A DNA stretch of 42,000 nucleotides from positions 1 through 42,000 of IMG/VR virus record IMGVR_UViG_3300046786_000257; one strand, given 5' to 3'. The stretch is from a virus. Its lineage: Duplodnaviria; Caudoviricetes. Made by a program: the position numbers and the translations under genes. Each line of letters opens with the position of its first letter. Positions within the stretch are counted from its first letter, which is position 1. Below are positions 512-38,516 of the stretch, piece after piece. The notes beneath the pieces were generated by a model. That model saw only the letters and a program-made list of their open reading frames with translations, ran no database searches and had not been told where the DNA came from.

Positions 512-512
512 T
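483..512 (+). promoter_or_regulatory. Sigma70/HrdB-type promoter: TAGACA-18-TATAAT with TG extension
   Basis: TAGACA 483-488; TGTTATAAT 504-512; ATG at 519 with no SD sequence. Confidence 0.6.
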
Positions 513-518
513 ATGATT

Positions 519-1208
519 ATGGACAATACAATTAATAGCATAGGTTTTACTTCTAAGCATGAGCTCTTTCCTGGAGTATGGGTTTATAAAAATGTAATTA
601 AGCCAGAACACAGATTTGTTGAGCGTGTAGATGAGATTATTCAGTCAAGCAACGGTAAGCATATTTGGCAAGAGGCCTTAGTTGGATATTCTGAAAAAAG
701 ACCAGAGTATAGAGATTGCCAGGACTTTAAGCTATCTAAGAACGAATATGCTTCTTCTTTAGATGATCTAGAGTTAAATACGATTTGGCAAGAAGCACAT
801 GACGCTCAAAATATTGCAGTTGAAGATTACTCAGCAATGTATAGTCTAAGACTTGAGTATTGGGAAGCAATGAATTTTATTCAGTATGGTCCAGGACAAC
901 ACTTTCAAGAGCATGCCGATCATGGATTTTCATATGTAGCCACAGTATCTCTTGTTGCATATCCAAATGATGGATATGAGGGAGGGGAGCTATATTTCCC
1001 TAAGCTTAACTTAAATATTAAGCCAGAAGCTGGAGACCTATACATATTCCCTTCAACTTATTTATTCTCACATGTTGCAAAACCAGTTACATCTGGAAGA
1101 AAGTTTTCTATTGTTACAATGCTTGACTATAATGATGAGTGTCATAATGAGGACTTTATGAGACTAAGAGGGCAAAGACTTCAACGTGCACGAAATAAAA
1201 GCCTATAG
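519..1208 (+). CDS. 2OG-Fe(II) oxygenase, prolyl-4-hydroxylase-like (start 513 or 519)
   Basis: HAD, YPNDGYEGGELYFP, HVAKPVTSGRK: HxD...H triad and basic 2OG-binding residue. Confidence 0.9.
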   Translation: MDNTINSIGFTSKHELFPGVWVYKNVIKPEHRFVERVDEIIQSSNGKHIWQEALVGYSEKRPEYRDCQDFKLSKNEYASSLDDLELNTIWQEAHDAQNIAVEDYSAMYSLRLEYWEAMNFIQYGPGQHFQEHADHGFSYVATVSLVAYPNDGYEGGELYFPKLNLNIKPEAGDLYIFPSTYLFSHVAKPVTSGRKFSIVTMLDYNDECHNEDFMRLRGQRLQRARNKSL

Positions 1209-1893
1209 GACCCAGCCAGGCCTGGCAGATATAGCCCCGCTTGGAATCAAAAGAGACTGGATGGATGAAACCTGGGAGGCTCACGCATACAAATGCTTTC
1301 CAGTAAGTCTAGCTAATGGCTTAGGCTGGTATCTTTCTTTTCCAGAAGATATTGTTTTTATTTGGGATGGAATTTCTGATTCAACTGCGGACCACGTTAA
1401 AGTTCTAAAGGGTGAAAAATATGCATATCCAGAAAGAGGAAATGCAACAATAAGCTTTAATACGGGAATCATGTTTAGATCAGATGAAAATATTAGTATG
1501 TTACATATGCCAGTTCCAAATTATTTAAGAGATGGTGTGCAGCCATTCTCTACATTAATTAGCACTTCATTTTTTAATGGAGACATCCCTTGTGCGTGGA
1601 GAATTACCCGCCCAAACGTAGAAATAACAATTAAAGCTGGAACACCAGTCATTGCTCTTGTGCCAATAAACTTAGAAGAAATTCAAAATTCATCTATTGT
1701 ATTTGAAGATATAAAGTCTTTTGATTCAAAGGGATTTGACTCAGACGGATATTCAAGAGCATTGGGTCGCTTAAATAAAGAAGCAAAGTGGTCTAATTTT
1801 TATAGGGATGCCGTAGATCATTTAGGCAGGAAAATAGGCAAGCATCAAGTTAAAGCAATAAGGCTTTCTGTGAAAGATACCCTAGATAACTAA
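1186..1893 (+). CDS. DUF6065-like conserved protein (commonly beside phage 2OG oxygenases)
   Basis: KRDWMD...HAYKCFPVSLANGLGW motif and C-terminal WSNFYRDAVD, recalled as DUF6065-like. Confidence 0.6.
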   Translation: MHEIKAYRTQPGLADIAPLGIKRDWMDETWEAHAYKCFPVSLANGLGWYLSFPEDIVFIWDGISDSTADHVKVLKGEKYAYPERGNATISFNTGIMFRSDENISMLHMPVPNYLRDGVQPFSTLISTSFFNGDIPCAWRITRPNVEITIKAGTPVIALVPINLEEIQNSSIVFEDIKSFDSKGFDSDGYSRALGRLNKEAKWSNFYRDAVDHLGRKIGKHQVKAIRLSVKDTLDN

Positions 1894-1911
1894 CTGCTTT
1901 TGTGGTAAAAT
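1883..1911 (+). promoter_or_regulatory. Promoter TAGATA-17-TAAAAT with TG extension
   Basis: TGGTAAAAT 1903-1911 in the intergenic gap; the same 9-mer recurs at 7837 and 28351. Confidence 0.55.
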
Positions 1912-1938
1912 AATAGTACTGAGCGAATTGAGGATTTC

Positions 1939-2616
1939 ATGGAAATATCAAATAAAGACATAAAGCATAGAGCACCTAAATCAATTACACCTTCTGGATT
2001 TTTTGGTGATTCAAGTAGCAATATTGTAGAGCTAGTAGACTTTTTAACAGAACAAGAACAAAAGCGCCTTATTGATTTTGCAATGAATAATAAAATTTGG
2101 GACCAGACAGAAACTCATGTTGATGAAGACGGCTTGGTTCTTTATGATGCTAACGTTTGGCAAGATCGAGTCTGCACATACAACTCCCTAATGAAATCAG
2201 ACCCAGAAATTTTAGAATTAATTAACTCCATGATTTATCGCTTAAAGCTAGAGGTAGACAAATTCTTTAACGTCGATGCTAAAGAAACTGGACCAGCAAT
2301 TGTTAGATGGCCTGTTGGAGCAAGACAAGAGCCACATGCAGATAAAGAATTTCACACTGGTATAGAGGCTGGCAGGCCAAATGATTTCCCATGGTATGAC
2401 CTAGCTGGACTATTTTATTTTAACGATGACTACGAAGGTGGCGAACTTTATTTTCCACAACATGGAATTGAGTTTAAGCCAAAAGCAAGGGCAGCATATT
2501 TTTTCCCAGGAGATAGATACTATACTCATGGGGTAAGACCAGTTAAGTCTGGCAATAGATTTACTTCACCGTTCTTTTGGACGATTATGAGACATACAGG
2601 AGAAAGACAGCCATGA
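1939..2616 (+). CDS. 2OG-Fe(II) oxygenase, P4H-like
   Basis: HAD, YFNDDYEGGELYFP, HGVRPVKSGNR; SD GAGG upstream. Confidence 0.9.
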   Translation: MEISNKDIKHRAPKSITPSGFFGDSSSNIVELVDFLTEQEQKRLIDFAMNNKIWDQTETHVDEDGLVLYDANVWQDRVCTYNSLMKSDPEILELINSMIYRLKLEVDKFFNVDAKETGPAIVRWPVGARQEPHADKEFHTGIEAGRPNDFPWYDLAGLFYFNDDYEGGELYFPQHGIEFKPKARAAYFFPGDRYYTHGVRPVKSGNRFTSPFFWTIMRHTGERQP

Positions 2617-3437
2617 GCAATTTAGAATATGTAGAGCTATACCCAAAAGTTGATGTATATAGAAATGTACTTAAAGATCCACAACAGCTTTATGATGTAA
2701 TGAAAGACTCTGAAAGAAATGCTAATGGAGAGTTCTATCTTAAGACCTGGGATCCGTGGGCACATTTTGGTACGTATACTCAGCATAAGGGGTCACACGA
2801 GATAACTCCTGAAATGGAACAGCTTGATAAGTTTAAAGCTGAGAAGGCATTTGTGGATGAGGTTGAAGCTGCATATGCGGCAGTTATAGCAGACTATGTT
2901 GAAAGACATAACGTTGAAATGCCAGAAGGCTGGAGATTTAGCGGATGCTCTTTTTCAAAGTATAATCCTCAAGTCGATGTTCTTAAAAACAAAATGACAA
3001 TGCAGTACCATACTGACTTTATTATTTCACAAAGAGACATGCCAGGAACAAAATTTTTCTTAACATGTACAATGTATATTAATGATGACTATGAAGGTGG
3101 AGACATCGAGTTTTATATTGATGGTGACGGAACTATTATTAACCATAAGCCTAAAGCTGGAGACATCCTTGTATTCCCATCAACAGATCCTTATTTCCAT
3201 GGCGTAAAGGTTATCAACGAAGCAGAGAAGTTTTTTGTTAGAAACTTTGTCGTCTATGACTACGATGGATCAGAAGAATGGCTCGCTAATCAAAAGAGAT
3301 TTGGTGCTTATGCATGGTCAAAGAAAGAGCTTGAAAGAATTGAAGAAGAAGATAAAAAGAATATGATCTACTTAAAAGATGGGGCTCGTGTAGAACACAA
3401 GGACGCATACGCTAATAGAGATCAGGGTGGGATGTAA
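2613..3437 (+). CDS. 2OG-Fe(II) oxygenase, P4H-like
   Basis: HTD, YINDDYEGGDIEF, HGVK; ATGA overlap with the upstream stop favours start 2613. Confidence 0.88.
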   Translation: MSNLEYVELYPKVDVYRNVLKDPQQLYDVMKDSERNANGEFYLKTWDPWAHFGTYTQHKGSHEITPEMEQLDKFKAEKAFVDEVEAAYAAVIADYVERHNVEMPEGWRFSGCSFSKYNPQVDVLKNKMTMQYHTDFIISQRDMPGTKFFLTCTMYINDDYEGGDIEFYIDGDGTIINHKPKAGDILVFPSTDPYFHGVKVINEAEKFFVRNFVVYDYDGSEEWLANQKRFGAYAWSKKELERIEEEDKKNMIYLKDGARVEHKDAYANRDQGGM

Positions 3438-4195
3438 TGGAGTTAATTAAGTTAACAGAAGACATTCACCTTTATAAAAACTTTATATCAAAAGAAGAAA
3501 GCGAAGCCGTAGTAGCCCTGCTAAATAAGATTGCAGAAACAGAAGAGGGTTACTGGAAAGGTATTTCTTTTTATGAGTCATACTCAGCACGTTACCCATT
3601 TGACGGAGAAGAAATTCTAAAAGAATACGGACTTAGCGATACATGGTTTTCTGATATTCAGCAAAGGTTTAAAGAGGCAGCAGCGGTAGTTGCTGGAAAG
3701 TCTGCAGACGAGATGTCTAAGATCAGCTTTCACGTTCAAAGATGGCTTCCAGGAGCATTTGCCCCAAAGCATTCAGACAACAGCAGCAATGAAGGTGTCC
3801 TAGGTGCATTTACAAGAAGCAGATATGCTGGATTTCTTTATTTGAACGATGACTTTGAAGGCGGAACATTAAAGTTTGACGCAGAGCATGGGAAGACACC
3901 GTTGGAGATAGTTCCAGAGACTGGATCATTTTTAGTATTTCATGGTGGTCATAAAAATATGCACGAAGTAACAGTTGTTAAGGGTAAGCCAAGATACACG
4001 CTAGGATCATTTTGGGATGATAGAGAAGAAGAAGATTATCCCAAAGAGCTTAGAGATGAATGGGCAGACGAACTTGCAGAGGTCAGAGCTTATCAAAAAG
4101 GTGAGCAGGAACAGTGGCAGGATATTCGTGAAAAAGGCTTAAGGCTCTCTCCGTATGGAAAGACTGTACCAGCTTCAGAAGTAGAGGAAATTTAA
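3437..4195 (+). CDS. 2OG-Fe(II) oxygenase, P4H-like
   Basis: HSD, YLNDDFEGGTL, HEVTVVKGKPRY; TAATG coupling. Confidence 0.9.
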   Translation: MELIKLTEDIHLYKNFISKEESEAVVALLNKIAETEEGYWKGISFYESYSARYPFDGEEILKEYGLSDTWFSDIQQRFKEAAAVVAGKSADEMSKISFHVQRWLPGAFAPKHSDNSSNEGVLGAFTRSRYAGFLYLNDDFEGGTLKFDAEHGKTPLEIVPETGSFLVFHGGHKNMHEVTVVKGKPRYTLGSFWDDREEEDYPKELRDEWADELAEVRAYQKGEQEQWQDIREKGLRLSPYGKTVPASEVEEI

Positions 4196-4845
4196 TGGAA
4201 ACTGATAAGCAATTTGATCAATATATAATGTTTGACCTGAAGGTCTTGCACCCAGACATTTGGTATTTTGAAAATGCTATTAGCTATTCAGAGCTTATCG
4301 CTGCTTTTGTCGAGGAGTTGGATAAAGATTTTAGATCTTACATGAGAATCCCAGGCTGGCAAAACTGGACTGCAAGTGATGACTCCTCTGTTGTTTATGG
4401 AGCTACAAAAACAATTAGGCCAGACTATCTTAGAGAATCAACTGGGGATGCAAGAATAGATCAAAAGACTTTGTATATTATAAACAGCCTTACAATGGCA
4501 GCAGAGATGTGCTCCGATAGATATCTTGATGGTCACGGGCTAGATAAGTCTAAGTACAACCTAGACTTAAGTTCAATTCAGTTTAAAAAATGGAATGCTG
4601 GACAGTCTATGGGACCGCATTTTGATGGTCAAGACGGGGACACCTCATTGGCATTCTCTATGGTTTCATATATCAATGATGATTATGAAGGCGGAGAAAT
4701 TAGTTTCCCAGATCATAATATAGCTATTAAGCCAAAGGCTGGTAGCTTGATTATGTTCCCATCTCAGCTTCCTTTTATGCATGAAGTAAAGCAAATTAAA
4801 TCTGGAACAAGATATATGGTTCCTTATTTAGTATATAATAAATAA
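4195..4845 (+). CDS. 2OG-Fe(II) oxygenase, P4H-like
   Basis: HFD, YINDDYEGGEISFP, HEVKQIKSGTRY; TAATG coupling. Confidence 0.9.
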   Translation: METDKQFDQYIMFDLKVLHPDIWYFENAISYSELIAAFVEELDKDFRSYMRIPGWQNWTASDDSSVVYGATKTIRPDYLRESTGDARIDQKTLYIINSLTMAAEMCSDRYLDGHGLDKSKYNLDLSSIQFKKWNAGQSMGPHFDGQDGDTSLAFSMVSYINDDYEGGEISFPDHNIAIKPKAGSLIMFPSQLPFMHEVKQIKSGTRYMVPYLVYNK

Positions 4846-16338: not shown

Positions 16339-16671
16339 ATGGCAAGTACAGTATATGATGTAGAAGAAATTCAATTACAAAATGGCAATGTCGTCAAACT
16401 AAAGCCTTTAACAATTAAAGAGCTTAGAAAGTTTATGGCAGCTATTTCAAAGACAGCGGACGCTACAACTGAAGATGAAACACTTACAATTTTAATTGAT
16501 GCATGTGCAGTAGCACTTGAAAAGCAACTACCAGATTTAGTTGCAGATCGTGACGCATTCGAAGATGTATTAGATGTTCCAACAATCAACCGTATCCTTG
16601 AGGTATGTGGTGGTATTAAGATGGATGATGCAAATTTGATAGCGGCAGCGGTTCTAGCTGGGGAGAACTAG
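16339..16671 (+). CDS. Tail assembly chaperone (gpG analogue)
   Basis: Between tail tube and TMP; VKLKPLTIKELRKF motif. Confidence 0.85.
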   Translation: MASTVYDVEEIQLQNGNVVKLKPLTIKELRKFMAAISKTADATTEDETLTILIDACAVALEKQLPDLVADRDAFEDVLDVPTINRILEVCGGIKMDDANLIAAAVLAGEN

Positions 16672-17000
16672 ATCTAGCTGCTTTAGAAGGAGAAGTTTTT
16701 CTCCTTGGTCATTGGAAGAGTTACGAAGAACTTGAAGACAATCTTTCAATGCCAGAACTGGTTCAAACTCTCAAAGCTATACAAAAGAAAGAATCAGAAA
16801 ATAGAAAGTTTCTAGCATCAATGCAAGGTGTTGATCTAGAAGAAGAAGTACAAGAAGAAAAAGGTTCTACCTTTGAAGATGTTCGAAGAAGAGCTCTTGG
16901 AATTGAAGCCACACAAGATGATGTTGTTTCACTACAAGGACAATTCGCAGCGGAAGCTGGATTCGGAATCAATGCAGGGTTAGGATACTCGAAGGAGTAA
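16629..17000 (+). CDS. Tail assembly chaperone frameshift extension (gpT analogue; fusion 16339-17000)
   Basis: -1 frame reads ...SWGELDLAALEGEVFLLGHWKSYEELEDNLSMPEL...; ATG 16749 lacks an SD. Confidence 0.8.
   Translation, partial: CKFDSGSGSSWGELDLAALEGEVFLLGHWKSYEELEDNLSMPELVQTLKAIQKKESENRKFLASMQGVDLEEEVQEEKGSTFEDVRRRALGIEATQDDVVSLQGQFAAEAGFGINAGLGYSKE
16632..16638 (+). other. Programmed -1 frameshift slippery site A AAT TTG
   Basis: XXXYYYZ heptamer in the correct phase; the -1 frame is open from 16629 to 17000. Confidence 0.65.
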
Positions 17001-17004
17001 ATGG

Positions 17005-20000
17005 TTGTCTGAGCAAAATATTAATACGAACATAACTGCTACGGCTAATTTTTCTGGCCTAACGTCGCAGTTGCAAGCGGTGACCGCTGAATTAATAAAG
17101 CTCCAAACAACAACCGTAGGACTCAATAAAAACTTACAAAACCAGATAGGCGTCATGAACCGTTCTTTTGCGGATTCAATGACGTCTACTGGCCAATTCT
17201 CAAAACACTTTGTTACGCTTACATCTGATGTTGAGAAGTTCGGCAAGAATCTTGATAGCGGTAGACTAAAGCTAAGCCAGTACTACAACACTTGGCAGGG
17301 TCACGTAAAGAACTCTAACACCCTTATTAAAGATCTAGCAAAGCAACAGGTGATGCTAGAGAATGCAATTATTCAGCCTTTAGGTAAAAATGCACAAGGC
17401 TTAATGCAGTATAACGTAATGGTTCAAAGAGGGCTAGACACTACAAAAGAAAAGATGTCCCTCTTAAGACAAGAGCAAGCTATTGTTAATAAGGTTATGC
17501 AAGATGGTGCAAACCAATTAATTAACTGGGGTAAAAATACCCAATGGGCTGGTCGTCAGTTAACAGTCGGACTCACAGTTCCAATTGCAGCCTTTGGCGT
17601 TGCTGCATCAAAAGCATTTAGAGAAGCTGATCAAGAACTTGTTAGACTAACTAAGGTTTATGGCGGATTAACAGCTGTATCTTCTGCTGAGTTAGCTAAA
17701 GTAAGAAAAGATATCTCTGAAACAGCAAAAGAATTAGCATCGTCTATGGGTGCATCTTATAAAGAAACAATTGGATTAGCAGCTGATATTGCCGCAACTG
17801 GTAAAGAGGGTGTAGACTTAATTGCTGCAACTAAAGAAACAACAAGACTAGCGGTACTTGGTGAGGTTGACAGACAAGAAGCAATGAAAGCCACGCTTGC
17901 AATTCAGTCAGCATTTAAGCAAAACACTGATGAGCTTACAAAATCAATTGACTTCCTCAACTCAGTTGAAAACCAGACTTCTACTAGCCTAGCAGATTTA
18001 GTTGAAGCAATTCCTAAAGCAGGTCCAGTAGTACAAGCAATGGGTGGAAGCATCAAGGATGTTGCGCTCTATTTAACAGCTATGCGTGAAGGCGGAATTA
18101 ATGCAAGCGAGGGTGCTAACGCACTCAAGTCTGCGTTAGCATCATTAGTAAACCCAACCAAGGTTGCTAAAGAAATGTTTAACGGCTTCGGTATTGATTT
18201 AAGCGGGATTGTAACAAAGAATGCTGGAAACTTAACAGAGACAATCCTGCAGCTACAATCTGCATTAGATACTCTTAACCCACTTCAAAAGCAACAAGCA
18301 ATCGAACAGCTATTTGGAAAGTTCCAGTTCTCTAGAATGAACGCATTGTTTGCTAACTTAGGAAAAGAAGGATCTCAAACCCTTAAGGTTTTAGATCTTA
18401 TGAAAGCAAGCTCCTCACAGCTTGCAGACATATCTGCTCGAGAATTAGCGCAGGTCACAGAGTCTGCATCTGGACGATATAAGAGAGCTCTTGAATCTGT
18501 TAAAGCAGATTTAGCAGGAGTTGGAGAATCCTTCCTTAAGATTAATACATATGTACTACAGGCAATTGATGGCATCGTTAAATTCGTTAATCATCTTCCT
18601 GGGCCAATCAAGAGCGTCCTGACATTTGTAGGCGGTCTAACAGCCCTTGCAGGCCCTCTGATCATGCTTACAGGTGTGCTTGGCAACTTCCTTGGATACG
18701 TAATTAAGGGAGTCTTTGCCCTTAAAAATATGGGCAAAGGTAAAGATGGATTTAAGCTATTAACACCAGAAATTATGGCGGCAGCAAAAGCTGGAAACCT
18801 TCTTCATGATTCATTTTATAGCGATGCAAAAGCTACAGAAACATTAAGAGATTCTGTATTTTCATTAGCTGAAGCATTTAATGCTGTTAAGGTGGCAGCT
18901 TTAGAAGCTGGGGTAGCAACAAATAAAGTTATATCTACAGCTCAAGGCAACGTAATAATTTCTCCATCTTCAAGAGCAATTAATGGTGAAAGAGTTGCAA
19001 ATAAAAACAGCCCATTTATTGGAGCTCCATATACAAGAGATATGGTTCACACAAATCCAACTGCAAGCAAGTCTGCAGAGGCAAGAGCAGCAGAAACAAT
19101 TTTCTCAACAGTTCCTGGGCCAAAGCCAGTAAATCAAAAGGTTTCAAATAACCCACAAATTTACATGAACAACGATCTTCCAAAAATTAATGGAATCACA
19201 TCTGTAAATGGAGTATCAACTGGAATAGTTGCTGCAGAGGCAGCAAAGTGGCATGCTATGACAGCGGCTATTGCTACACAATCAGAAGCAGAAATTGCTA
19301 AGCTAAAAACTGAAGTTGCTGCTACAGGAACTGTCACATCAGAATTAAGCGATGCATATCAACAAATGCTTCCAGCTATGTCAGAGCTCACAACACTTGC
19401 TGCTCAAGATGCAGAGATGATTGTCAAAGAACTTCAAGCTGGCACACTAACAGTTGAAGCTGCAAGAGCAAAAATATTCCAGTTAAATGCAACAGTGGAA
19501 GCTATGATGGCGGAAACAGCAACTCAGATTGCAACTGGCATGGGAAGAAATATAAACTTAACTACAGTACCGTTGACAAGCCAGCCAGTAGTATCAGCAG
19601 CTGGCAAATCAAATATGAAAGAGCTTTTTCACAAAACAGAAACATCGGCATTAGCAGATGCAATTGCAAGAAACTTAGGCGTTAGAACATCTGGCGGCGG
19701 ATATAGTATTGAGACTACTATACCTAAGAGACTTAATTCTGGTGGCAAGGTCGGCGGAGTATATAATCCTAATGTTCATGGGGCAGTTGTTCCTGGTGAC
19801 ACATCAATAAATTATGATAATACTCCAGCCAGAGTACCACTTGGTGGATTTGTATTAAATCAAGAAGCTTCAAGAAATAATCCAGAATTAGTAGAACGTG
19901 CTAAAAATGGATATAACGCTGGTGGACAAATTGATGCACTTCTTACTCCAGGAGAAACTGTTGTAGATCCAAGAACATATCAAGAAAATAGATCAGCTTA

Positions 20001-23000
20001 TGATATGGCTAATTCTTCAAGAAAAAGAATTTCATTTAGAAATGCAGGCGGTCTACTCGGTGGACAAGTCGTGCCAAGAAGACTAAATTATGGAGAAGTA
20101 AATAGCGATGCTCAATTAAAGTATTATACAGAGTTCCATACAAGTAAAGACTGGAACCCTTATGCAAGAGCGGGTGCAATTGCAAATGATGCTGAGGCTT
20201 TGGCTAGAAATGGCGTACCATACAAAGAGGCTGTAAGAGAAGCAACTAAATGGTTTGATGATAGATGGGCTAGAACACTTGCTGAAAATGGTGGAGAATT
20301 TAGTCAAGCTAAGTTTACTGAAATTACTCAGGGTAGCTATAAGAACTTTGAAAAAGAATTAAGAAAGAAATATACTCTCAAGAAATCTCTTTCTAAAGAC
20401 TGGAATAAGAGAACAGGTTCTGGCGCTGCCCCTACAAGAAAAGATTGGCAGTACACATCTGGCGGAATCGACATTAATTTAAGAAAAGATATTCTTACTG
20501 AAATGTTGGATGATAAGAACATTAGCTCAAGTGCTGTAAGCAGATTAATTAAGGAGTCTGGAGTTGCAACTTTGCATAGAGCTCATGCAGTCCCAGGTGT
20601 AGAAAACAAGCTTTCAGGATTCAACTACCTTGGCCAGGCAGTTTTGCAGCCAGGCGAAATAAATACATTGGCTAAAGATTTAAATCATTATGGTATTCAT
20701 CCAAACGCTTTCTCATTAGATGTTAATGAGAATAAAAAGTCAATGAATACAGTTGCCAAAAAGCTTGGCTATCTTGACCATGAAGATATGGTTAAGAGCT
20801 TATCTTCAAGACAGTCTGCTCAAGCTAGACCACCAAGAAGATGGGCAGTAAGAAATGGCATGACTGCCATTATGGAAAGATTAGTTAAATCAAGCCCAGC
20901 AGACTTTAGAGCATACATGGCCCGTCCAATGATTGCCAATAGATTGGCAATGAATTCTGGAGGAGAGATCGGTGGAGTTGTAACATCTGGTAAAAAGAAT
21001 TACGGAATCACTATTGGAGAAAGAGGCTTTCCACTATTTAAGGGAAGATACAAATCTCCATTAATGTTGCATCCTGAGCAAGTTAAGCTTCAGGAAAAAA
21101 GAACTGCAGAGCGTTTAGCTAAAGCTCCAAAAGACGCAGAAGGAAGAATTTGGCAGACTCCATTAGAGCTAGCCTATATTAGAGAAGGAAAGATGAGCAT
21201 GGGTAAAAACCCTATGCCAAAATCTTACTATCAAGATTTATCAAATGATGATCCAGCACATGGAGCATTACAGATTGGAAGATATAGACCTCCAATTCAT
21301 GTAAGAAATCAATATGTCGGAGAGCAGATTAGATACTCTTCCCCAACAAACTGGAGAGGGCGAGAGGGAATTTCCTCACCAGCATTTGAAGTTGGCACCC
21401 TTGAAACTAGAGCAAAGTCTGCGTTGTATAAATATATGCAGGGAGATTACTCTGCAATAGATGATCCAGCAGTTCAAAAATATTTATCTACACTAAGAAC
21501 TAAATTCACTGGCACCCTTCATAGAGGAGTTAGACACACATCTAGTCTGCCTCCAGTAATTAGAGATTTAATTCAGCAAGGCAAATGGGCAGAGCTAGTT
21601 GGCAAAGAGTTCATCATGCGTCGCTCATCATGGAGCACAAATAAAGATACGGCAGAAGGATTTGGTCAGCTTCAGCTTATTGCTAATGTGAAAAATAGAA
21701 ATGCGGTACCAGCATCTCAGATTTTCCCAGATTTGACTTTCCAGTCTGCTCAAGGGCCAGTCCCAGTAAATGAAAGCGAAGTTTACATGGGTGGAAAGTT
21801 TAGAGTTGTTGGTGCAGAAAAGAATAAACTTAGACTCCAAGCTATTTATGATGCAGCTCGTGAAAAGGGCGGTCCTGTTAATAAGAGTAGACCATACCTA
21901 GTTGGCGAAAAGGGCCCAGAGCTCTTTGTTCCAAATGCTAATGGAAAAATTGTTCCAGGCTACAACATGGGCGGAATTATTAAGCAACTATTAGTTATGG
22001 CTGGAGTTGGTCAAGCATCCTCTATGGTAGGACAAAAAGTTGGTGGAGTTGGCGGAGAAGCAATATCAACTATTGGTCAACTTTTACCATTCCTCATGAT
22101 GGGCAATGCGGGAATGGGGTCAGGAAGTAAACTAAGTTCTAAGTTGCCATCAAGCTGGAATCAGGCGGCATTTGTAGAATCAAAGGGAGGATCTAGTTTA
22201 GCATCCTCACTTGGTGGAAATACAAAGATGCTGTCTGCGTATGGCGCAAAAATGACACAGTTGGCAACAACAGGTGGAAAATTTGGATCTACAATTGGTA
22301 AGCTAGCCCTAGGCATGAGCAGATTTAATTTGGCTCTTGGTGTAGGAACAACAGCTGCTGTAGTGGCATGGAAGGCTTGGAAGAATCATAACGAACACTT
22401 AAGAGTTGGTGCTCTTCAATATGGCCTTACTGCAGAAGCTGCTAAAAAAGCAGGACTTAAATTTACTGATTACAATCAAAAAATGAAAGATGCAGTTTCA
22501 ACAATTAAAGACCTTAATGAAAAAAATCAATTGATTTATGAAAGCATGACTCAATCTGATACTCCTATTAACCTTACAATAAAACAGTATAAGGCATTGA
22601 AGAAAGAAGTTCAGTCAACTTATGCCGATCAAATTAAACTTATTAATCAGACAAAAGACTCTAAGTCTATAAATAAAGTAGCGCTTGATCTTAAAACTCA
22701 ATTAATTGCAGCAGGAATGTCAGCAGAAGAAGCGACTAAAAAAATCTATACAATGTTTAAACTTTCAAATAAAGCATCTAGTGCCGTTGCTGCAACGGTT
22801 GGCAATACAAGATTTAATCAAATCAGTGACCCTCAAACAGCAGCAGTTGCAGCTGTTGGAGGATATAAGTCTGCATCTAAAGAAGGCGGAGTAGAAGGTG
22901 CAAATGCTGTGAATACTGCATTAACTGCAATTGATACAGGAATTCAAGACAGTATTGAAAGAAGTAAAAAAGCTGCTATGGCTGATAAGACTGGAAACAC

Positions 23001-24669
23001 TAAAGTCCTTACGCAGTATGAAGCAGAATTAAAGATGATTAATAGAATTAATAATTCTAAAAAAGATGGAACCAAAATTACAAAAGACACTATTGATCAA
23101 TTAGCAAAAGAAAATCCTGCTATAAGAGAAATAGCTACCGAACAAGATACAGTAGTAAGCTTATGGCAAAAAATGGATCTAGCTACAAAAGGCTATTCTG
23201 GAAATCTTTCAGAACTTGGCTCAGAAGCTGTAGCTACTTTAAGTAAAATAGCACAGGCTATATCAAATGCAACCATTGCAGCTAATAAAGAAGGTCTTCT
23301 AAAAGATCAATATAACTTATTAGATAAGCTCACTGCACAAAGAGACAAATTACTTAAGGCTGCAAAAGGACAGAGTGTACAACAGCAGATAAATGATAGA
23401 GATGCCCTTGCTGCGCTAAATAAGCAAATTGATAAAAACAATAAGCTTGCTGATGCTAGAAAAAAGGCACTTGATGCTGCAAAACAAGATGCTGATTTAG
23501 CTAGAGCTATTGAAAAGAAAAAGCTTGAAATACAAAGCGCTATTGCTTCTGGAAATGATACACAAGCTCAACAGGCCCAACTGGACATGGAAGGCCTTTT
23601 AAAGCAACAGCAATATGAGTCACAAGTAAAAGCAATTGATAAATCTGTTGAAGATGCAAACGCACCACTTTTAAAACAAATTGAGGCTATACAGAATAAG
23701 CAGCAAAAATTAGCTGATGGCGCCGCTTTAGCTGGAGAAGGTTTATCTAAGCTAAATGACAAAATTGCTACACAGAAAGATAAAATTGATGCAGTAAATA
23801 CTGCTATGACATCATTTAGACTAAATGCAGCGGCTGCTGGAAAGTCTTTAGAGGAATGGGCAAAAGATCCAGATGGAATGAAGCAAGCAACTGCTATAAC
23901 TAATGCTGCAAAAAATGCTGGAGTTAAAACAACGGCAGGACAAAATAGCGTTACATATACTCCAGGAATAGGTCCAGTTGTAAATAAGGTAACAAATTCT
24001 CAAGCGGGACTTGATCTTTTAAAAACAACTCAAGCTGCAGTAGAAAAAGGATTATCTGCACAAAATATGGAAGTTCAAAACTCTGGTGATATATACATAA
24101 ATGGATCAAAACAAACTGTTCAAAAAAATGTTGATGCTGGAGGAAAAGCTTTAAAAACAATAACAGCAAAAATTGAAACAACTGGCTATAGCGCAAATAC
24201 AGTAGGCAAAGGGTCATTAATGGCTGCTGGTGTACCATTGATCAAAGGCGCAATGTTTTTAGACAGTGCTGGTAAGAAGTGGGTAGTAGGAGATCAAAGC
24301 GATAGAATGGGAATGAATTTCCATGTAACGCAAAAGGCTGGATATGGTCTTATGAATATTGATCCAAAGAAGCCTACAATTGTTGGTGACCGTGGACCAG
24401 AGATGATTTTTGGGAATATGGTTATTCCAAATATGGCAAAGGTTCCGTTTGCTGGACCAAGATATGATGTAGCAAAAGCATCTATGAAGATGAAGGATAT
24501 GGGCATGTCATCTTCAAATGGCACATATAACGTAACTCAAAATATTTACGCATCAGACGGAATGGATGTAGAAGCACTTGCAAATATGGTTGTTAAGCAA
24601 ACTAAGTTAGCAATTGGACAAGAAGCTAAGGTTAATGCTAAAATGGTTGGAGTAAAGAGGACAATCTAA
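17005..24669 (+). CDS. Tape measure protein (2554 aa) with internal enzyme-like cassettes
   Basis: TP901-type core (AFREADQELVRL...EGANALKS...IEQLFGK), hydrophobic segments, coiled coils; follows the chaperone pair; TTG start behind AAGGAG. Confidence 0.95.
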   Translation: MSEQNINTNITATANFSGLTSQLQAVTAELIKLQTTTVGLNKNLQNQIGVMNRSFADSMTSTGQFSKHFVTLTSDVEKFGKNLDSGRLKLSQYYNTWQGHVKNSNTLIKDLAKQQVMLENAIIQPLGKNAQGLMQYNVMVQRGLDTTKEKMSLLRQEQAIVNKVMQDGANQLINWGKNTQWAGRQLTVGLTVPIAAFGVAASKAFREADQELVRLTKVYGGLTAVSSAELAKVRKDISETAKELASSMGASYKETIGLAADIAATGKEGVDLIAATKETTRLAVLGEVDRQEAMKATLAIQSAFKQNTDELTKSIDFLNSVENQTSTSLADLVEAIPKAGPVVQAMGGSIKDVALYLTAMREGGINASEGANALKSALASLVNPTKVAKEMFNGFGIDLSGIVTKNAGNLTETILQLQSALDTLNPLQKQQAIEQLFGKFQFSRMNALFANLGKEGSQTLKVLDLMKASSSQLADISARELAQVTESASGRYKRALESVKADLAGVGESFLKINTYVLQAIDGIVKFVNHLPGPIKSVLTFVGGLTALAGPLIMLTGVLGNFLGYVIKGVFALKNMGKGKDGFKLLTPEIMAAAKAGNLLHDSFYSDAKATETLRDSVFSLAEAFNAVKVAALEAGVATNKVISTAQGNVIISPSSRAINGERVANKNSPFIGAPYTRDMVHTNPTASKSAEARAAETIFSTVPGPKPVNQKVSNNPQIYMNNDLPKINGITSVNGVSTGIVAAEAAKWHAMTAAIATQSEAEIAKLKTEVAATGTVTSELSDAYQQMLPAMSELTTLAAQDAEMIVKELQAGTLTVEAARAKIFQLNATVEAMMAETATQIATGMGRNINLTTVPLTSQPVVSAAGKSNMKELFHKTETSALADAIARNLGVRTSGGGYSIETTIPKRLNSGGKVGGVYNPNVHGAVVPGDTSINYDNTPARVPLGGFVLNQEASRNNPELVERAKNGYNAGGQIDALLTPGETVVDPRTYQENRSAYDMANSSRKRISFRNAGGLLGGQVVPRRLNYGEVNSDAQLKYYTEFHTSKDWNPYARAGAIANDAEALARNGVPYKEAVREATKWFDDRWARTLAENGGEFSQAKFTEITQGSYKNFEKELRKKYTLKKSLSKDWNKRTGSGAAPTRKDWQYTSGGIDINLRKDILTEMLDDKNISSSAVSRLIKESGVATLHRAHAVPGVENKLSGFNYLGQAVLQPGEINTLAKDLNHYGIHPNAFSLDVNENKKSMNTVAKKLGYLDHEDMVKSLSSRQSAQARPPRRWAVRNGMTAIMERLVKSSPADFRAYMARPMIANRLAMNSGGEIGGVVTSGKKNYGITIGERGFPLFKGRYKSPLMLHPEQVKLQEKRTAERLAKAPKDAEGRIWQTPLELAYIREGKMSMGKNPMPKSYYQDLSNDDPAHGALQIGRYRPPIHVRNQYVGEQIRYSSPTNWRGREGISSPAFEVGTLETRAKSALYKYMQGDYSAIDDPAVQKYLSTLRTKFTGTLHRGVRHTSSLPPVIRDLIQQGKWAELVGKEFIMRRSSWSTNKDTAEGFGQLQLIANVKNRNAVPASQIFPDLTFQSAQGPVPVNESEVYMGGKFRVVGAEKNKLRLQAIYDAAREKGGPVNKSRPYLVGEKGPELFVPNANGKIVPGYNMGGIIKQLLVMAGVGQASSMVGQKVGGVGGEAISTIGQLLPFLMMGNAGMGSGSKLSSKLPSSWNQAAFVESKGGSSLASSLGGNTKMLSAYGAKMTQLATTGGKFGSTIGKLALGMSRFNLALGVGTTAAVVAWKAWKNHNEHLRVGALQYGLTAEAAKKAGLKFTDYNQKMKDAVSTIKDLNEKNQLIYESMTQSDTPINLTIKQYKALKKEVQSTYADQIKLINQTKDSKSINKVALDLKTQLIAAGMSAEEATKKIYTMFKLSNKASSAVAATVGNTRFNQISDPQTAAVAAVGGYKSASKEGGVEGANAVNTALTAIDTGIQDSIERSKKAAMADKTGNTKVLTQYEAELKMINRINNSKKDGTKITKDTIDQLAKENPAIREIATEQDTVVSLWQKMDLATKGYSGNLSELGSEAVATLSKIAQAISNATIAANKEGLLKDQYNLLDKLTAQRDKLLKAAKGQSVQQQINDRDALAALNKQIDKNNKLADARKKALDAAKQDADLARAIEKKKLEIQSAIASGNDTQAQQAQLDMEGLLKQQQYESQVKAIDKSVEDANAPLLKQIEAIQNKQQKLADGAALAGEGLSKLNDKIATQKDKIDAVNTAMTSFRLNAAAAGKSLEEWAKDPDGMKQATAITNAAKNAGVKTTAGQNSVTYTPGIGPVVNKVTNSQAGLDLLKTTQAAVEKGLSAQNMEVQNSGDIYINGSKQTVQKNVDAGGKALKTITAKIETTGYSANTVGKGSLMAAGVPLIKGAMFLDSAGKKWVVGDQSDRMGMNFHVTQKAGYGLMNIDPKKPTIVGDRGPEMIFGNMVIPNMAKVPFAGPRYDVAKASMKMKDMGMSSSNGTYNVTQNIYASDGMDVEALANMVVKQTKLAIGQEAKVNAKMVGVKRTI
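21400..21852 (+). other. ADP-ribosyltransferase (R-S-E clade) domain inside the TMP
   Basis: ALYKYMQGDY helix, LHRG (R1507), SSWST (S1542-x-S1544), NESEV (E1590-x-E1592), then GKFRVV. Confidence 0.8.
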
Positions 24670-25121
24670 TGACATTATACTTACCAGTTGGTTCCGCTCT
24701 GTTTGTTGATACTTCAATAACCAGCACACCTTCATGGCAAAAACTTACTGAGCATAACCGTCAGCCAGTTGGAATAGACTCTAATAGAATTGAAAAGGTA
24801 CAGAGAACTTCTAATGGAACCCTTAGAAAGATATTCATTGCTGATAAGATTAGCGTCAATACATCCTGGAGTGCTCTTCCCTCATACAGCACAATGACAG
24901 TTGATGCAGGCTGGGGAGCCGAAGACATGAGATCCTTTTATAATGATAAGGGTAAGGGCACCTTTAAGGTTAAGATAGCCTATAACTCATCTAGATCAGA
25001 AGAAAAGCTAATGGCATTTAATTCATTTAACATGACAATGACTAAAAGAAATGTCAAGGAAAAAATTAGCGATACCCCGCAGGCATTTTGGGAGATAAGC
25101 TTTTCATTGGATGAGGTCTAA
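24669..25121 (+). CDS. Distal tail (Dit-like) minor tail protein
   Basis: Directly after TMP; RTSNGTLRK and terminal WEISFSLDEV. Confidence 0.65.
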   Translation: MTLYLPVGSALFVDTSITSTPSWQKLTEHNRQPVGIDSNRIEKVQRTSNGTLRKIFIADKISVNTSWSALPSYSTMTVDAGWGAEDMRSFYNDKGKGTFKVKIAYNSSRSEEKLMAFNSFNMTMTKRNVKEKISDTPQAFWEISFSLDEV

Positions 25122-34758: not shown

Positions 34759-35071
34759 AAAAGAGCCATACGTTCTTATAGGGCTGTACCAGTCATTGTA
34801 TAAGGAGCGATATGGCAAGACACCACAAGTAAATAAGTTCCGTGAAAAATGGGCTATGCAAGATGTTATTGATAGTGTAGGATTCGAACGAGCTAAGGAA
34901 ATACTTATTTATTACTTCTCTTTAAATAAGCATGGTCATCCACTGCAGTTCTTTTTCTATAATTTTGATAGACTTGATTCTGCAATTACGGATGTTGAAA
35001 AAGATAAAGAGAGACGTCGTTTGTTATTAGAAGAGACGAAGCATATGGTTGAAAGAGGCGGAATAGAGTGA
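34748..35071 (+). CDS. Hypothetical protein upstream of the helicase (possible loader)
   Basis: ORF coupled to dnaB; function inferred from position only. Confidence 0.6.
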   Translation: MANEKEPYVLIGLYQSLYKERYGKTPQVNKFREKWAMQDVIDSVGFERAKEILIYYFSLNKHGHPLQFFFYNFDRLDSAITDVEKDKERRRLLLEETKHMVERGGIE

Positions 35072-36315
35072 ATACAGAAGCAACATTAATCTCAGCAGTT
35101 TGTAAGAATAAAGATATCAGCACACTGCTAGCAGATAACGTAGACGATCTATTTACTTCCCATAAAGATATTTGGGAAGGATTAAAGGCATACTACTATA
35201 AGTTTAAAGCCGTACCAGAAGCTGGAGTTTTGCTAGAAAAGTTTAAAGACTTTGAGATAGACACTAATGTAAAAGCTGAGACTGGCTACTATTTAGACAA
35301 GCTTAAAAATGAATACCTTTCTAACCGACTTAAGAATATCATTCTTAAAGGCGGCTCAATGCTTAAAGAAGATGCAGCCTCTAGAGTTTTATCAGAGATG
35401 CAGGCGCAGCTCGCAAGCCTATCTAAATTTACAAGCAATGTGCGAGACCTAGATGTAACAGATTCAGATGCTGCTGTTAGACACTTTGAAGCAACAAAGG
35501 TTCGCTCTGCAGAAATGGGTGGATCTCCAGGAATTAAAACTGGATTTCAGGCTATTGATTTGGCATACCCTACTGGAATGGCACCAGGACACCTTATCGT
35601 TGCTATTGGTTGGCCAGGGCGTGGTAAGACGTGGTTTACTTCATACCTAGCTTGCAAGGCTTGGGAGCAAGGCTTTAAGCCAATGATTGTTTCACTTGAA
35701 ATGTCTCCAGAGAATATGCGTGACCGTATCTACACTATGCTTGGTTCTGGATTGTTTAAGGCAAGTGAACTTGCAACTGGTGATATCAACCTTGATGATT
35801 TTAAGTCATGGTCGAATAAAAAGTTTGAGAATAAGAATGGCTTTGTTCTTGTTTCCAATGAGGGAATGGCAGAAGTTACACCAGCAACAATTCAAGGTAA
35901 GATTGACCAGCACAAACCTGACCTAGTTATTCTAGATTATCACCAGCTGTTTTCTGATAATAAAAAGAGCCAGGGTGCTACAGAGCGTAACATGAATATT
36001 TCACGTGAGTTCAAGATGCTTGCTATGACAAATAACATTCCAGTTATTGATATCACAGCGGCTACAATGGATGATGTATCTGATCAGGATAATCCTCCTA
36101 TGTTATCTCAGGTTGCATGGTCAAAAGCTATTGAGTATGATGCTGATATGGCTATTGCAATTCACAAATATACTGGGACTCAAATGGTTGAGGTTGTGTC
36201 ACGAAAGAACCGTCACGGCTCAGAGTTTGGTATGTACTTAGATTGGGATATCAATAGAGGTATCGTCAAAGAGATTTACGAGAACCCTTTCCAGAATGAC
36301 TCACAAAAGAATTAA
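35068..36315 (+). CDS. dnaB: Replicative DnaB-like helicase
   Basis: GWPGRGKT Walker A, SLEM, VILDYHQL, IEYDAD, KNRHG. Confidence 0.95.
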   Translation: MNTEATLISAVCKNKDISTLLADNVDDLFTSHKDIWEGLKAYYYKFKAVPEAGVLLEKFKDFEIDTNVKAETGYYLDKLKNEYLSNRLKNIILKGGSMLKEDAASRVLSEMQAQLASLSKFTSNVRDLDVTDSDAAVRHFEATKVRSAEMGGSPGIKTGFQAIDLAYPTGMAPGHLIVAIGWPGRGKTWFTSYLACKAWEQGFKPMIVSLEMSPENMRDRIYTMLGSGLFKASELATGDINLDDFKSWSNKKFENKNGFVLVSNEGMAEVTPATIQGKIDQHKPDLVILDYHQLFSDNKKSQGATERNMNISREFKMLAMTNNIPVIDITAATMDDVSDQDNPPMLSQVAWSKAIEYDADMAIAIHKYTGTQMVEVVSRKNRHGSEFGMYLDWDINRGIVKEIYENPFQNDSQKN

Positions 36316-36595
36316 AAGATTTCAGATTGAATTTTGTTCTGTAGATGACACTCAGATTATCAAGATGAAAGATCTATCTGAAAAGACTTTAGTTACTCAG
36401 ATGAGAGATTCTGGGTATATAAGAGTACTTGACATAGACCCAACACTTAATATAGAATTCAACGGAACAACATTTAGATACCTTATGACAATTCATGGGG
36501 TTTACGTAGGAAAGAAGCAGGCATGGCAATTAGAGGGTATAACACAAAACAAGTTGATACCACGCACTACGCCCCAGCACACATCAAATCAATAA
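36296..36595 (+). CDS. Hypothetical protein
   Basis: ORF between helicase and primase, overlapping both. Confidence 0.65.
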   Translation: MTHKRIKRFQIEFCSVDDTQIIKMKDLSEKTLVTQMRDSGYIRVLDIDPTLNIEFNGTTFRYLMTIHGVYVGKKQAWQLEGITQNKLIPRTTPQHTSNQ

Positions 36596-37518
36596 TTAAA
36601 TCTATTGGTTTAGATGTTGTTGGAGAGACAAACAACGATTTCCTATGCTACTGTCCATTTCATTCCAATAGACATACTTCAAGCTTTAGCGTAAGTCGTG
36701 AGAAGGGTGCGTTCATTTGCTTTAATCCTTCCTGCGGTGAAGCTGGAACCCTATTAGATCTTGTTAAGCGTACTATGCAAAAGAATGATTTTGAAGCTAT
36801 GCGATTTATTTCTTCTATGGAAACGGAAGCTCTAGAGAACTTTGATGAGTTGTTATCTGAGGCAATGTTGGATACACCAGACTTCGATACCTTCTCACAG
36901 GAAACAATTAATAGACTTCATGCAGATCTAGCTGGATATAAGCCTGCAAGAGATTACTTAGAGTCTAGAAGAATTAATTCTGACTCAATGAAATACTTTT
37001 TATTAGGTTACTCTCATCCAATGAGCATGGTTGTGACTCCAGTTCATAGCCCATTTGGTGATCCAATCGGTATTGTTGGCAGATCAATTGAAGGAAAATC
37101 TTTTAAGAACAGTACCAACCTTCCTAAAAGCAAAACTCTTTTCAATGTTCATCGTGCTAAGAAAATTGGAGAGCATGTAATAGTTGTAGAGTCTAACTTT
37201 GATGCAATTAGAATTCATCAGGCTGGCTTTCCAAATGTTGTTGCAACACTAGGTGGATTCTTGTCGGCAGACCAGCAGCATTTGTTGAATAGATATTTTA
37301 ATAAAATTACTATCATGACTGATGCTGATAAAGCTGGAAGAGATTTGGGACTTAGCATTGCTACCAAATTAAGAATGAAGGATATTATGTGGGCCTCTTA
37401 TGAATATGGCAAGGTTTTCCCGCATGATGCAAAGGATGCTGGCGATATGACCGATGATGAGATTAAAGCCTGTATTAAAAATGCGGTGTCAGATATTGAA
37501 TACCGCTCATGGAAATGA
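36523..37518 (+). CDS. dnaG: DNA primase (CHC2 zinc finger plus TOPRIM)
   Basis: CPFH...CFNPSC, VVESNFD, DADKAG, KDAGD. Confidence 0.93.
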   Translation: MAIRGYNTKQVDTTHYAPAHIKSIIKSIGLDVVGETNNDFLCYCPFHSNRHTSSFSVSREKGAFICFNPSCGEAGTLLDLVKRTMQKNDFEAMRFISSMETEALENFDELLSEAMLDTPDFDTFSQETINRLHADLAGYKPARDYLESRRINSDSMKYFLLGYSHPMSMVVTPVHSPFGDPIGIVGRSIEGKSFKNSTNLPKSKTLFNVHRAKKIGEHVIVVESNFDAIRIHQAGFPNVVATLGGFLSADQQHLLNRYFNKITIMTDADKAGRDLGLSIATKLRMKDIMWASYEYGKVFPHDAKDAGDMTDDEIKACIKNAVSDIEYRSWK

Positions 37519-37524
37519 TATAAT
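37496..37524 (+). promoter_or_regulatory. Promoter TTGAAT-17-TATAAT with TG extension for the SSB gene
   Basis: TGATATAAT 37516-37524. Confidence 0.7.
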
Positions 37525-37572
37525 AGTAGTAACAGATGGATATATACCATCACATACAACAAGGAGATATAA

Positions 37573-38250
37573 ATGGGTATCGTAAAAGGTCTTAAGGGAC
37601 TTAATCAAGTAATGGACAAGCCTTCTTACTCAGAAGGAGATGGAACAAAAGCTCGTTGGGCTAAGCTAGAAGATGCAGAAAGCGTTAAGATTCGCTTTTT
37701 ACAGGAGTTAGATCCTGATTCACCAACATACAATGAAAAGAACGGCCTAGGATTTATTGCCGTTGAACACACAAATCCAAAAGACTATCGTCGCAAGGCG
37801 CTGTGCACCATGGAAGACCAAGGTAAGTGCTATGGTTGCGAGCAACATCGTAAGGACTACAAGGCGGGATGGAAGGGTCGTTCACGACTTTACATCAACG
37901 TGCTAGTTGATGACGGTAAGGAAGATCCTTACGTTGCAATTCTTTCACAGGGTTCAAGTGGCAAAACAATTACACCTACACTTATTGAATACGCTGGAGA
38001 AATGGGATCTATCACAAATCTCATGTGGCGTATTAAACGCTCTGGTACAAAAACAGATACCAGCTACACAATCATCCCTTTGGCTAAGGATGAAGCTCCT
38101 TTTGATAGCTCAGCTCTTGAGCTATACGATTTGGAAACAACAGCAGTTCGTGATCTTCCATATGTAGAGCAGGATGCATTCTTTGCAGGAGAAAATGGAC
38201 ACGCAGAAGAAGAGTCAAGCTCTTCAACCAGTAGCAGCCTAGACTGGTAA
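37573..38250 (+). CDS. Single-stranded DNA-binding protein (T4 gp32-like)
   Basis: VKIRFL; His and Cys ligands (C...CYGC); IKRSG.KTDTSY; acidic/Ser tail ending LDW; strong SD. Confidence 0.8.
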   Translation: MGIVKGLKGLNQVMDKPSYSEGDGTKARWAKLEDAESVKIRFLQELDPDSPTYNEKNGLGFIAVEHTNPKDYRRKALCTMEDQGKCYGCEQHRKDYKAGWKGRSRLYINVLVDDGKEDPYVAILSQGSSGKTITPTLIEYAGEMGSITNLMWRIKRSGTKTDTSYTIIPLAKDEAPFDSSALELYDLETTAVRDLPYVEQDAFFAGENGHAEEESSSSTSSSLDW

Positions 38251-38261
38251 TTAATTAAAGT

Positions 38262-38295
38262 CGGGGCCAGTCTATTGACTGGCCCCGTTTTGTTT
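38262..38295 (+). terminator. Intrinsic terminator after the SSB gene
   Basis: CGGGGCCAGTC-TATT-GACTGGCCCCG followed by TTTTGTTT. Confidence 0.92.
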
Positions 38296-38303
38296 GATAG
38301 AAT
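38275..38303 (+). promoter_or_regulatory. Promoter TTGACT-17-TAGAAT with TG extension, embedded in the terminator; probably leaderless
   Basis: -35 spans the hairpin loop and 3' arm; TGATAGAAT 38295-38303; ATG 38310. Confidence 0.7.
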
Positions 38304-38309
38304 GACCAC

Positions 38310-38516
38310 ATGATTTCATACGAGATACCAGATCCATTTGAGACTTTTGTTGCAAACAAATATAAATCGGCTGTAGGATTGAAGTACGACTTCTTTGCTA
38401 AAGAATGGTATTTGAAAACAGCATGCTGTGGCGAAGAACTTTATGCACCAAATAAAAAAACAATGACTAAGATTAGACTTTATCATACAAGAAATGAATG
38501 TTTAGGCGGATACTAA
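38310..38516 (+). CDS. Small Cys/His-containing protein
   Basis: ACCG...HTRNEC; TAATG coupling to dnaE. Confidence 0.7.
   Translation: MISYEIPDPFETFVANKYKSAVGLKYDFFAKEWYLKTACCGEELYAPNKKTMTKIRLYHTRNECLGGY

Follow-up and report, generated by a model that had tools for sequence, protein, structure and literature searches.

The window, the 42,000-nucleotide stretch analysed here (positions 1 to 42,000 of IMG/VR virus record IMGVR_UViG_3300046786_000257), carries structural and replication genes of a siphophage, and its tape measure protein (TMP) of 2,554 amino acids has two slots in its middle. These slots are filled combinatorially across relatives, their contents are exchanged at short glycine-glycine (GG) linkers, and the cassettes that we could test are all under purifying selection. 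In the window the first slot holds a cassette that we call C1 and the second holds C2. We judge it reasonably probable that such cassettes are enzymes which are ejected with the TMP, delivered passively or while tethered to it, and likely act on an actinobacterial host at infection. From its sequence, C2 is very probably an R-S-E ADP-ribosyltransferase (ART), and our model of C1 makes this cassette somewhat more likely than not to be a His-Me finger nuclease. Coordinates of all features are collected in Table 1.

The TMP was assigned from a PhageMin_Tail domain (PF10145, amino acids 239-438, E 3.7e-30 in the Pfam scan), a match to phrog_10030 (E 4e-127 in the PHROG scan) and its position after the tail tube and chaperone genes and before the distal tail genes. 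The first-pass annotation, which saw only the sequence, had described a middle region punctuated by six motifs, and all of them sit where it put them: RLNSGG (N911), GYNAGG (N971), FRNAGG (N1013), AMNSGG (N1317), AREKGG (E1620) and GYNMGG (N1654). The whole protein has five N-x-G-G words, every one of them within amino acids 911-1654, and aromatic and proline content goes up across amino acids 900-1700. Across a dereplicated set of 149 orthologs, the pattern [FYLMRH][NAE]xGG reaches a density of 10.7 per 1,000 amino acids between cassettes, against 0.24-0.36 elsewhere (N-terminal part, cassette interiors and C-terminal conserved domain). The short beta motifs described around this region are also present in the sequence but occur outside this system too: the AxGG...YLVGExGPE module matches Klebsiella and Pseudoalteromonas phage TMPs as well as Ralstonia and Vibrio phage records. 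The exit module has matches in 80 records of phages with unrelated hosts, several of them annotated as TMP, and is therefore a generic TMP element. Searches of the GG modules against the PDB gave chance matches only.

To define the slots we gathered 404 orthologous proteins, of which 336 had a complete middle, the rest lacking one flanking domain; dereplication of the 336 left 149, and their slots were resolved by iterated profiles. The family is large, with at least 875 clusters at 90% identity matching amino acids 690-1030 (7,994 candidates scored). Among the first 77 loci, amino acids 1-600 found a BLAST match in 76 at 61-98% identity, while C1 was matched in 10 and C2 in 26. This earlier set already agreed with the proposal that flanks are conserved and inter-motif segments vary in number and domain type, and the wider set of orthologs bears it out. 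The middle region ranges from 426 to 1,317 amino acids, with 19 different combinations of slot contents. At least six divergent families are found in slot 1 (C1 in 60 of the 149, E2 in 24, E1 in 20, G in 15, E3 in 12 and E4 in 3), and in the 15 unassigned orthologs the slot is still 311-437 amino acids long. Slot 2 is occupied by an ART-like domain in 75 orthologs, a carrier count inflated by the ART-directed searches that supplied part of the set, by a kinase-like domain together with a domain named D157 in 48, by the kinase-like domain alone in 11, by D157 alone in 11 and by ART plus kinase in one; it is empty in three. When contents were mapped on the tree of the N-terminal carrier, we counted 51 changes for slot 1 (minimum 6, shuffled mean 81) and 26 for slot 2 (minimum 5, shuffled mean 64). 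The contents therefore partly follow descent and are often exchanged.

We then compared 25 pairs of orthologs that share no protein, are at least 90% identical in their N-terminal parts and differ in contents. The boundaries of the divergent blocks fell at the motif (-8 to +25 residues) in 44 of 54 cases against 22% expected, an enrichment that is partly circular because the linkers are the only sequence common to unrelated cassettes. Stronger evidence comes from clean cases. P0154 and L040 differ by a 346-amino-acid kinase-like unit inserted within the motif, P0116 and P0114 by an ART unit inserted from linker to linker, and P0128 and P0155 by loss of D157 between motifs, whereas P0037 and P0125 show a slot-1 swap between flanks that are 96% and 97% identical. 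Boundary counts and whole-cassette insertions and deletions together agree with the earlier proposal of swappable, repeat-delimited cassettes and place the exchange at the motifs. Recent duplication of the linkers was considered and rejected, those of the window being at most 81% alike over 26 nucleotides in an exact DNA repeat search. All four glycine codons are in use at the linker glycine pair (82 loci); given this and the small amount of exact shared DNA, the motif is kept at the protein level too. The NxGG linkers would thus be protein-level connectors that double as recombination crossover points, a role for which cleavage is not required.

Cassette dN/dS values (nonsynonymous to synonymous substitution rates) were 0.02-0.35 in eight pairs, with 0.06 for C1 against its counterpart in L001, which places all cassettes tested under purifying selection. 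Seven of 148 closed open reading frames stop early. We looked at three of these: L075 has a frameshift near 8967, at the first cassette linker, L067 has an in-frame stop near 8521, in slot 1, and the third is a complete open reading frame. Naturally split TMPs were accordingly rejected as an explanation, and we read the cases as errors or broken genes.

C2 carries, in order, R1507 in an LHRG strand, S-W-S at 1542-1544 and E1590-x-E1592. The R-S-E order defines the cholera-toxin-like class of ADP-ribosyltransferases, which includes T4 Alt and VIP2, and an ExE motif is typical of its arginine-directed members. The ART signature proposed for this segment at first pass is kept across the family: in 175 family matches (not dereplicated) the arginine is conserved in 174, the serine in 174 and ExE in 170. 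In the cassettes, catalytic-type residues of this sort are nearly invariant while the remainder falls to 15-30% identity. The ESM Atlas recognised C2 (2340), with clusters bearing PF03496, PF15962 and PF26816 at 0.89-0.91, behind unnamed clusters at 0.93. A search with PF03496 gave a weak match (E 0.006) in one of five records, and four of 14 controls also matched. A single-sequence fold of C2 had a predicted local distance difference test score (pLDDT) of 40 and was not used. No stand-alone C2 is evident: of the 45 profile matches, 44 are long TMPs or TMP fragments, and the remaining one is an unrelated beta-propeller protein. The C2 family is also found near the C-terminus (P0020, P0027) or directly after the N-terminal carrier (P0043), and its presence near the C-terminus means that position is not a strict sorter of cytoplasmic from wall enzymes. 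Together with P0042, these three are more distant TMPs in which the same ART and kinase-like cassettes recur elsewhere in the protein; in P0042 a second, unrelated R-S-E-like unit lies between them.

For C1, a possible nuclease signature had been noted, and both of its residues proved invariant. H1194 and N1220 are the only invariant positions of the cassette, conserved in 43 of 43 aligned sequences and in 174 of 174 matches. AlphaFold2 run on the family alignment predicted a helical domain (pLDDT 85, predicted template modelling score 0.83) in which H1194 ends the strand 161-165, followed by a strand at 183-187 and then by the helix 188-199 holding N1220. His-Me finger nucleases (HNH, beta-beta-alpha-metal) have the catalytic histidine on a first strand, then a second strand and a conserved asparagine on the next helix, and the C1 model has this layout with both residues in place. 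Profile comparison of the slot-1 families related only E1 and E3 (88% probability); C1 and E3 reached 38% and the others were unrelated. E3 and G, read by eye, have a His...Asn order similar to that of C1. In E1 and E2 (L032:8979-9701 and L021:8973-9656) the asparagine helix comes early and the histidine strand at the very end, and this reversed order, as read from the sequences, may reflect a circular permutation.

The alternative slot-2 domain shows by eye a Gly-rich loop, a VFVK lysine, a helix Glu, DxDxxxxN and DxG, in kinase order. It had no Pfam, PHROG or PDB match in sequence and profile searches, PF00454 touching one record below the cut-off. D157 is a strongly conserved domain of 152 amino acids (for example L003:9980-10435) that belongs to no known family; it is present in 59 of the 149 orthologs, usually directly after the kinase-like domain. 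The 128 complete orthologs are 1,957-4,319 amino acids long, and 36 of them extend for more than 800 amino acids after the C-terminal conserved domain, compared with 459 in the window TMP. In long orthologs this end forms a second passenger zone, also cut up by GG modules, in which Pfam finds CHAP, LysM and OmpA domains with weak kinase matches and in which zincin/HExxH, ART-like, GNAT-like and kinase-like motifs can be read by eye. The slot-2 kinase-like profile was considered as a relative of the C-terminal kinase-like passenger and rejected, the two being unrelated. Carriers of the zone include L100, L106, L166, L182, L212, L216, L232, P0036, P0077, P0099, P0113 and P0123, and many of its units open with a hydrophobic leader reminiscent of pre-toxin linkers.

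Several results weigh against reading the cassettes as delivered enzymes, among them the inflation of the ART counts and the partial circularity of the boundary test given above. C2 had no significant match in Pfam, PHROG or PDB sequence and profile searches, its ART profile reached a probability of 0.5% against six Alt-family sequences, and the Atlas clusters share 119-143 of 256 features with it, which is under the usual level for true family members. In a comparison of C2 with T4 Alt and the Alt profile only the first strand aligned, and this candidate similarity was rejected as not significant. C1 was not recognised by the ESM Atlas and gave no significant match in Pfam, PHROG and PDB sequence and profile searches. 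Fold searches with its model (Foldseek against the PDB, VIA-wide, BFVD) found no match either, the best VIA Z being 3.9 (root-mean-square deviation 8.1, 126 aligned) and no Foldseek match falling under E 0.6; an absent fold match does not exclude a His-Me finger. Finally, a nuclease delivered beside phage DNA needs some protection or specificity, and none was identified. The enzyme identities suggested at first pass are partly supported: they draw on catalytic motifs, language-model features and the strand-strand-helix model of C1, and no sequence, profile or fold search linked them significantly to a known enzyme.

TMPs occupy the tail tube, leave it first and form the DNA channel (PMC12617516, PMC11445458). 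Because the tube is unlikely to have room for several copies of folded domains of 250-330 amino acids, the cassettes would be held there in an extended form and refold after ejection. No hydrophobic segment lies inside the cassettes in any of the 149 orthologs; behind the last cassette such a segment is present in 114 of them, but in the window the Gly-rich stretch at that place is below threshold. Lying between two hydrophobic stretches, the cassettes would reach the cytoplasm and could remain tethered to the membrane-inserted TMP near the incoming DNA. The enzymes delivered in this way would act at once on host proteins or nucleic acid, as T4 Alt or the T7 kinase do, with C2 as a likely protein ADP-ribosyltransferase and C1 as a possible nuclease in the host. 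The most likely driver of cassette variation is strain-to-strain difference in host defences or host targets.

We favour tethered or passive delivery because gp96 of Thermus phage P23-45, a TMP that carries an active cytoplasmic enzyme, is full-size in virions (PMC10770324). The first-pass annotation had instead proposed release at the repeats. On that view the GG linkers would be cleavage sites, used while the tail matures or once the TMP has been ejected, and the cassettes would work as free enzymes. This polyprotein reading is a good deal less probable. It fits linkers that stand on both sides of most cassettes and a motif kept at the protein level with all four glycine codons in use, and there are precedents in lambda gpH, which is cleaved at an unknown position within a Gly-rich region close to the C-terminus, and in the T5 TMP, which are the only TMPs reported as cut in particles (PMC12617516). 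Self-cleavage by built-in metallopeptidases has also been proposed for polyvalent proteins (PMC5512222), and an HExxH-type motif occurs in 12 of the 128 complete orthologs; by the pattern used, it is absent from the window TMP and from the other 116. The GG module is moreover generic in TMPs and also bounds the M23 passenger of cultured relatives, P23-45 gp96 is uncut in virions, and DNA-level crossover with a structural connector accounts for the pattern without cutting. Release is therefore not supported so far, and we take the motifs as connectors and crossover points. A still broader reading, in which the TMP of aquatic actinophages is a general-purpose magazine, is likewise unlikely as a whole. 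Under it, two passenger zones would hold nuclease-like, ART, kinase, peptidase, GNAT-like and unknown domains, their one GG connector would serve recombination and cleavage alike, each virion would inject a mixture of free effectors particular to the strain that disarms host defence before phage expression, and slot 1 would be a new, partly permuted radiation of His-Me fingers.

The passengers could also be non-catalytic or degenerate, binding host envelope or cytoplasmic partners, or tuning tail length and evading TMP-sensing defences, with the motifs as structural remnants. The absence of an enzyme fold or profile match, the lack of a recognisable catalytic motif in D157, an empty slot 2 in 3 of 149 orthologs and the absence of both slots from five cultured relatives would all suit such a role. 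We nevertheless consider it improbable, given that in three unrelated families the invariant residues are the ones that catalysis would call for and follow one another in the expected order. Two further targets seem very improbable to us. A Trojan-horse toxin, in which the ART hits a protist grazer that eats the virion or the infected cell, has been suggested for 24 freshwater phages with VIP2-like ARTs (PMC6802176) and would be compatible with the likely actinobacterial hosts; here, however, the ART is buried in a late structural protein ejected into a bacterium, has no detectable VIP2 similarity and is interchangeable in one slot with kinase-like and unknown domains. Attack on co-infecting phages or resident elements (superinfection exclusion) that spares the host machinery would fit the fast turnover of slot 1, and other DNA coming in could be attacked by a nuclease tethered where it enters, but a virion holds only a handful of molecules and no immunity gene adjoins the TMP.

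The IMG/VR record is estimated at about 39% completeness. A WhiB gene was found in all five related records of 110-115 kb tested, and an actinobacterial host is therefore likely for this phage; WhiB was not found in the window's own partial record. We presume a freshwater origin of the phage family from similar genomes and from PMC6802176 rather than from computation. Gene order around the TMP is that of Stanwilliamsviridae tail operons. Because conserved tail genes abut the TMP upstream (54 of 54 loci) and downstream (53 of 54), there is no immunity gene or spare cassette beside it in these loci, the search covering adjoining genes only; the lack of an adjacent immunity gene noted at first pass thus held. 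Two small genes at 16339-17000 sit where the tail assembly chaperone pair is found, and in one relative this pair is annotated as a frameshifted joined product. Elsewhere in the window, a seven-gene run at 98-4845 (five 2-oxoglutarate-Fe(II) oxygenases, one Asp/Asn hydroxylase-like gene and one DUF6065) stands directly before tail-fibre-like and portal genes, and 35068-41782 encodes a DnaB helicase, a primase and a DnaE-type polymerase III alpha subunit.

Table 1. Features of the tape measure gene and its neighbours, in window positions (aa, amino acids; ORF, open reading frame).
Feature	Position	Strand	Basis or detail
Likely tail assembly chaperone gene, upstream	16749..17000	+	adjoins TMP in 54/54 loci; same place as annotated chaperones of cultured relatives
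Tape measure protein (TMP), 2,554 aa	17005..24669	+	ORF; PhageMin_Tail; phrog_10030; gene order
PhageMin_Tail domain, aa 239-438, in conserved N-terminal carrier	17719..18318	+	Pfam
Hydrophobic, predicted membrane segment, aa 535-574	18607..18726	+	hydropathy; in 144/149 orthologs
Entry linker zone, aa 909-1030, with a pair of GG/beta modules (N911, N971) ahead of the first cassette linker, FRNAGG...NYG (N1013)	19729..20094	+	swap boundaries are located here
Slot-1 cassette C1, aa 1031-1314, globular	20095..20946	+	H1194 at 20584, N1220 at 20662
Inter-cassette linker AMNSGG...NYG, aa 1315-1334	20947..21006	+	whole-cassette insertions start or stop here in relatives
Slot-2 cassette C2, aa 1335-1617	21007..21855	+	R1507 at 21523, S1542 at 21628, E1590 at 21772, E1592 at 21778
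Exit module AREKGG...YLVGEKGPELFVP...GYNMGG, aa 1618-1659	21856..21981	+	widespread TMP module
Glycine-rich stretch, aa ~1658-1800, glycine-zipper-like, ahead of coiled-coil half	21976..22404	+	sequence
Degenerate C-terminal GG/GDRGPE module	24334..24432	+	sequence; window TMP has no second passenger zone here
Small tail gene, downstream	24669..25121	+	adjoins TMP in 53/54 loci; place of annotated minor tail genes

TMPs are usually seen as rulers and DNA channels, with wall hydrolases or a single fixed polymerase as the most they carry. Should the slots contain active ARTs, kinases and nucleases, effectors that act before phage expression would have an overlooked route through the tail lumen, and the family of at least 875 clusters would offer a collection of new enzymes that neither Pfam nor the PDB reveals. 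The natural swaps at one linker also mark where a tail tolerates foreign domains, which bears on phage engineering. A literature search on ART, polymorphic, effector or cargo domains in TMPs found no such architecture described, most subscription papers lying outside its reach; the accessible portions of PMC7824862 and PMC10240207 do not describe it either.

Cultured matches to the TMP's N-terminal part are led by Streptomyces phages (127 of 154 records), followed by Rhodococcus, Gordonia and Tsukamurella phages. The closest cultured TMPs, at 33-36% identity over the N-terminal part and with the same gene order, are those of Bmoc, Tomas, BillNye and TunaTartare (Streptomyces phages, all four Stanwilliamsviridae) and of Rhodococcus phage Trina. 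Unlike the window TMP, none of the five has mid-protein cassettes. They carry instead an M23 peptidase near the C-terminus, which lies between GG modules in the three sequences checked; Pfam finds no wall-hydrolase domain in the window TMP. The Streptomyces relatives without slots would be a chassis for testing delivery.

The architecture shares with polymorphic toxins a conserved carrier and variable effector domains. It departs from them in that the cassettes lie at amino acids 1031-1617 of 2,554 rather than at the C-terminal tip, and in that the genes adjoining the TMP at the 54 loci include no immunity gene or orphan cassette. Immunity genes are typical of the MuF polymorphic toxin family. 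MuF proteins with a VIP2 ART are found in Microbacterium phages Percival, Goodman and Johann, and resemble our case as virion structural proteins with an optional ART that is absent from close relatives (PMC7302621). MuF is a head protein with a terminal toxin, whereas the TMP is a tail-lumen protein with internal slots and no adjacent immunity gene. T4 Alt, a mono-ART packaged in the virion and injected with the DNA (PMC5512222), serves as a working model for C2, but it is a stand-alone head protein and C2 has no significant profile similarity to it.

The first-pass view that TMP enzymes are mainly muralytic overlooks P23-45 gp96, a TMP fused to an active virion RNA polymerase (PMC10770324). 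That protein is like ours in placing a cytoplasm-acting enzyme inside the TMP polypeptide, where it is proposed to work at the TMP pore, and differs in having one fixed N-terminal polymerase of demonstrated activity (PMC10770324), while the window TMP has internal, combinatorially swapped and motif-bounded predicted enzymes of conflict type. Polyvalent proteins (Iyer et al. 2017, PMC5512222) combine ART, kinase, metallopeptidase and wall hydrolases in one polypeptide, and the likeness would lie in several unrelated enzyme types on a large virion-linked polypeptide with proposed delivery alongside DNA. Their named carriers are MuF, portal, N4-like RNA polymerase, DdrB and ArdC, the word "tape" does not occur in the main text, no repeated linker is described in the accessible portion, and their ARTs belong to the HYD clade as opposed to the R-S-ExE type of C2 (PMC5512222). 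Several enzyme domains per polypeptide would fit our architecture, with the enzyme calls resting on motifs. Of the polyvalent hub domains we found, besides the HExxH motifs counted above, one weak LPD14 match (E 0.066); a metallopeptidase (MPTase) is itself present in only about 36% of polyvalent proteins (PMC5512222). The TMP cassettes appear to work like polyvalent proteins and like the optional MuF-ART fusions, and they are a real, new form of what is probably virion-delivered enzyme cargo.

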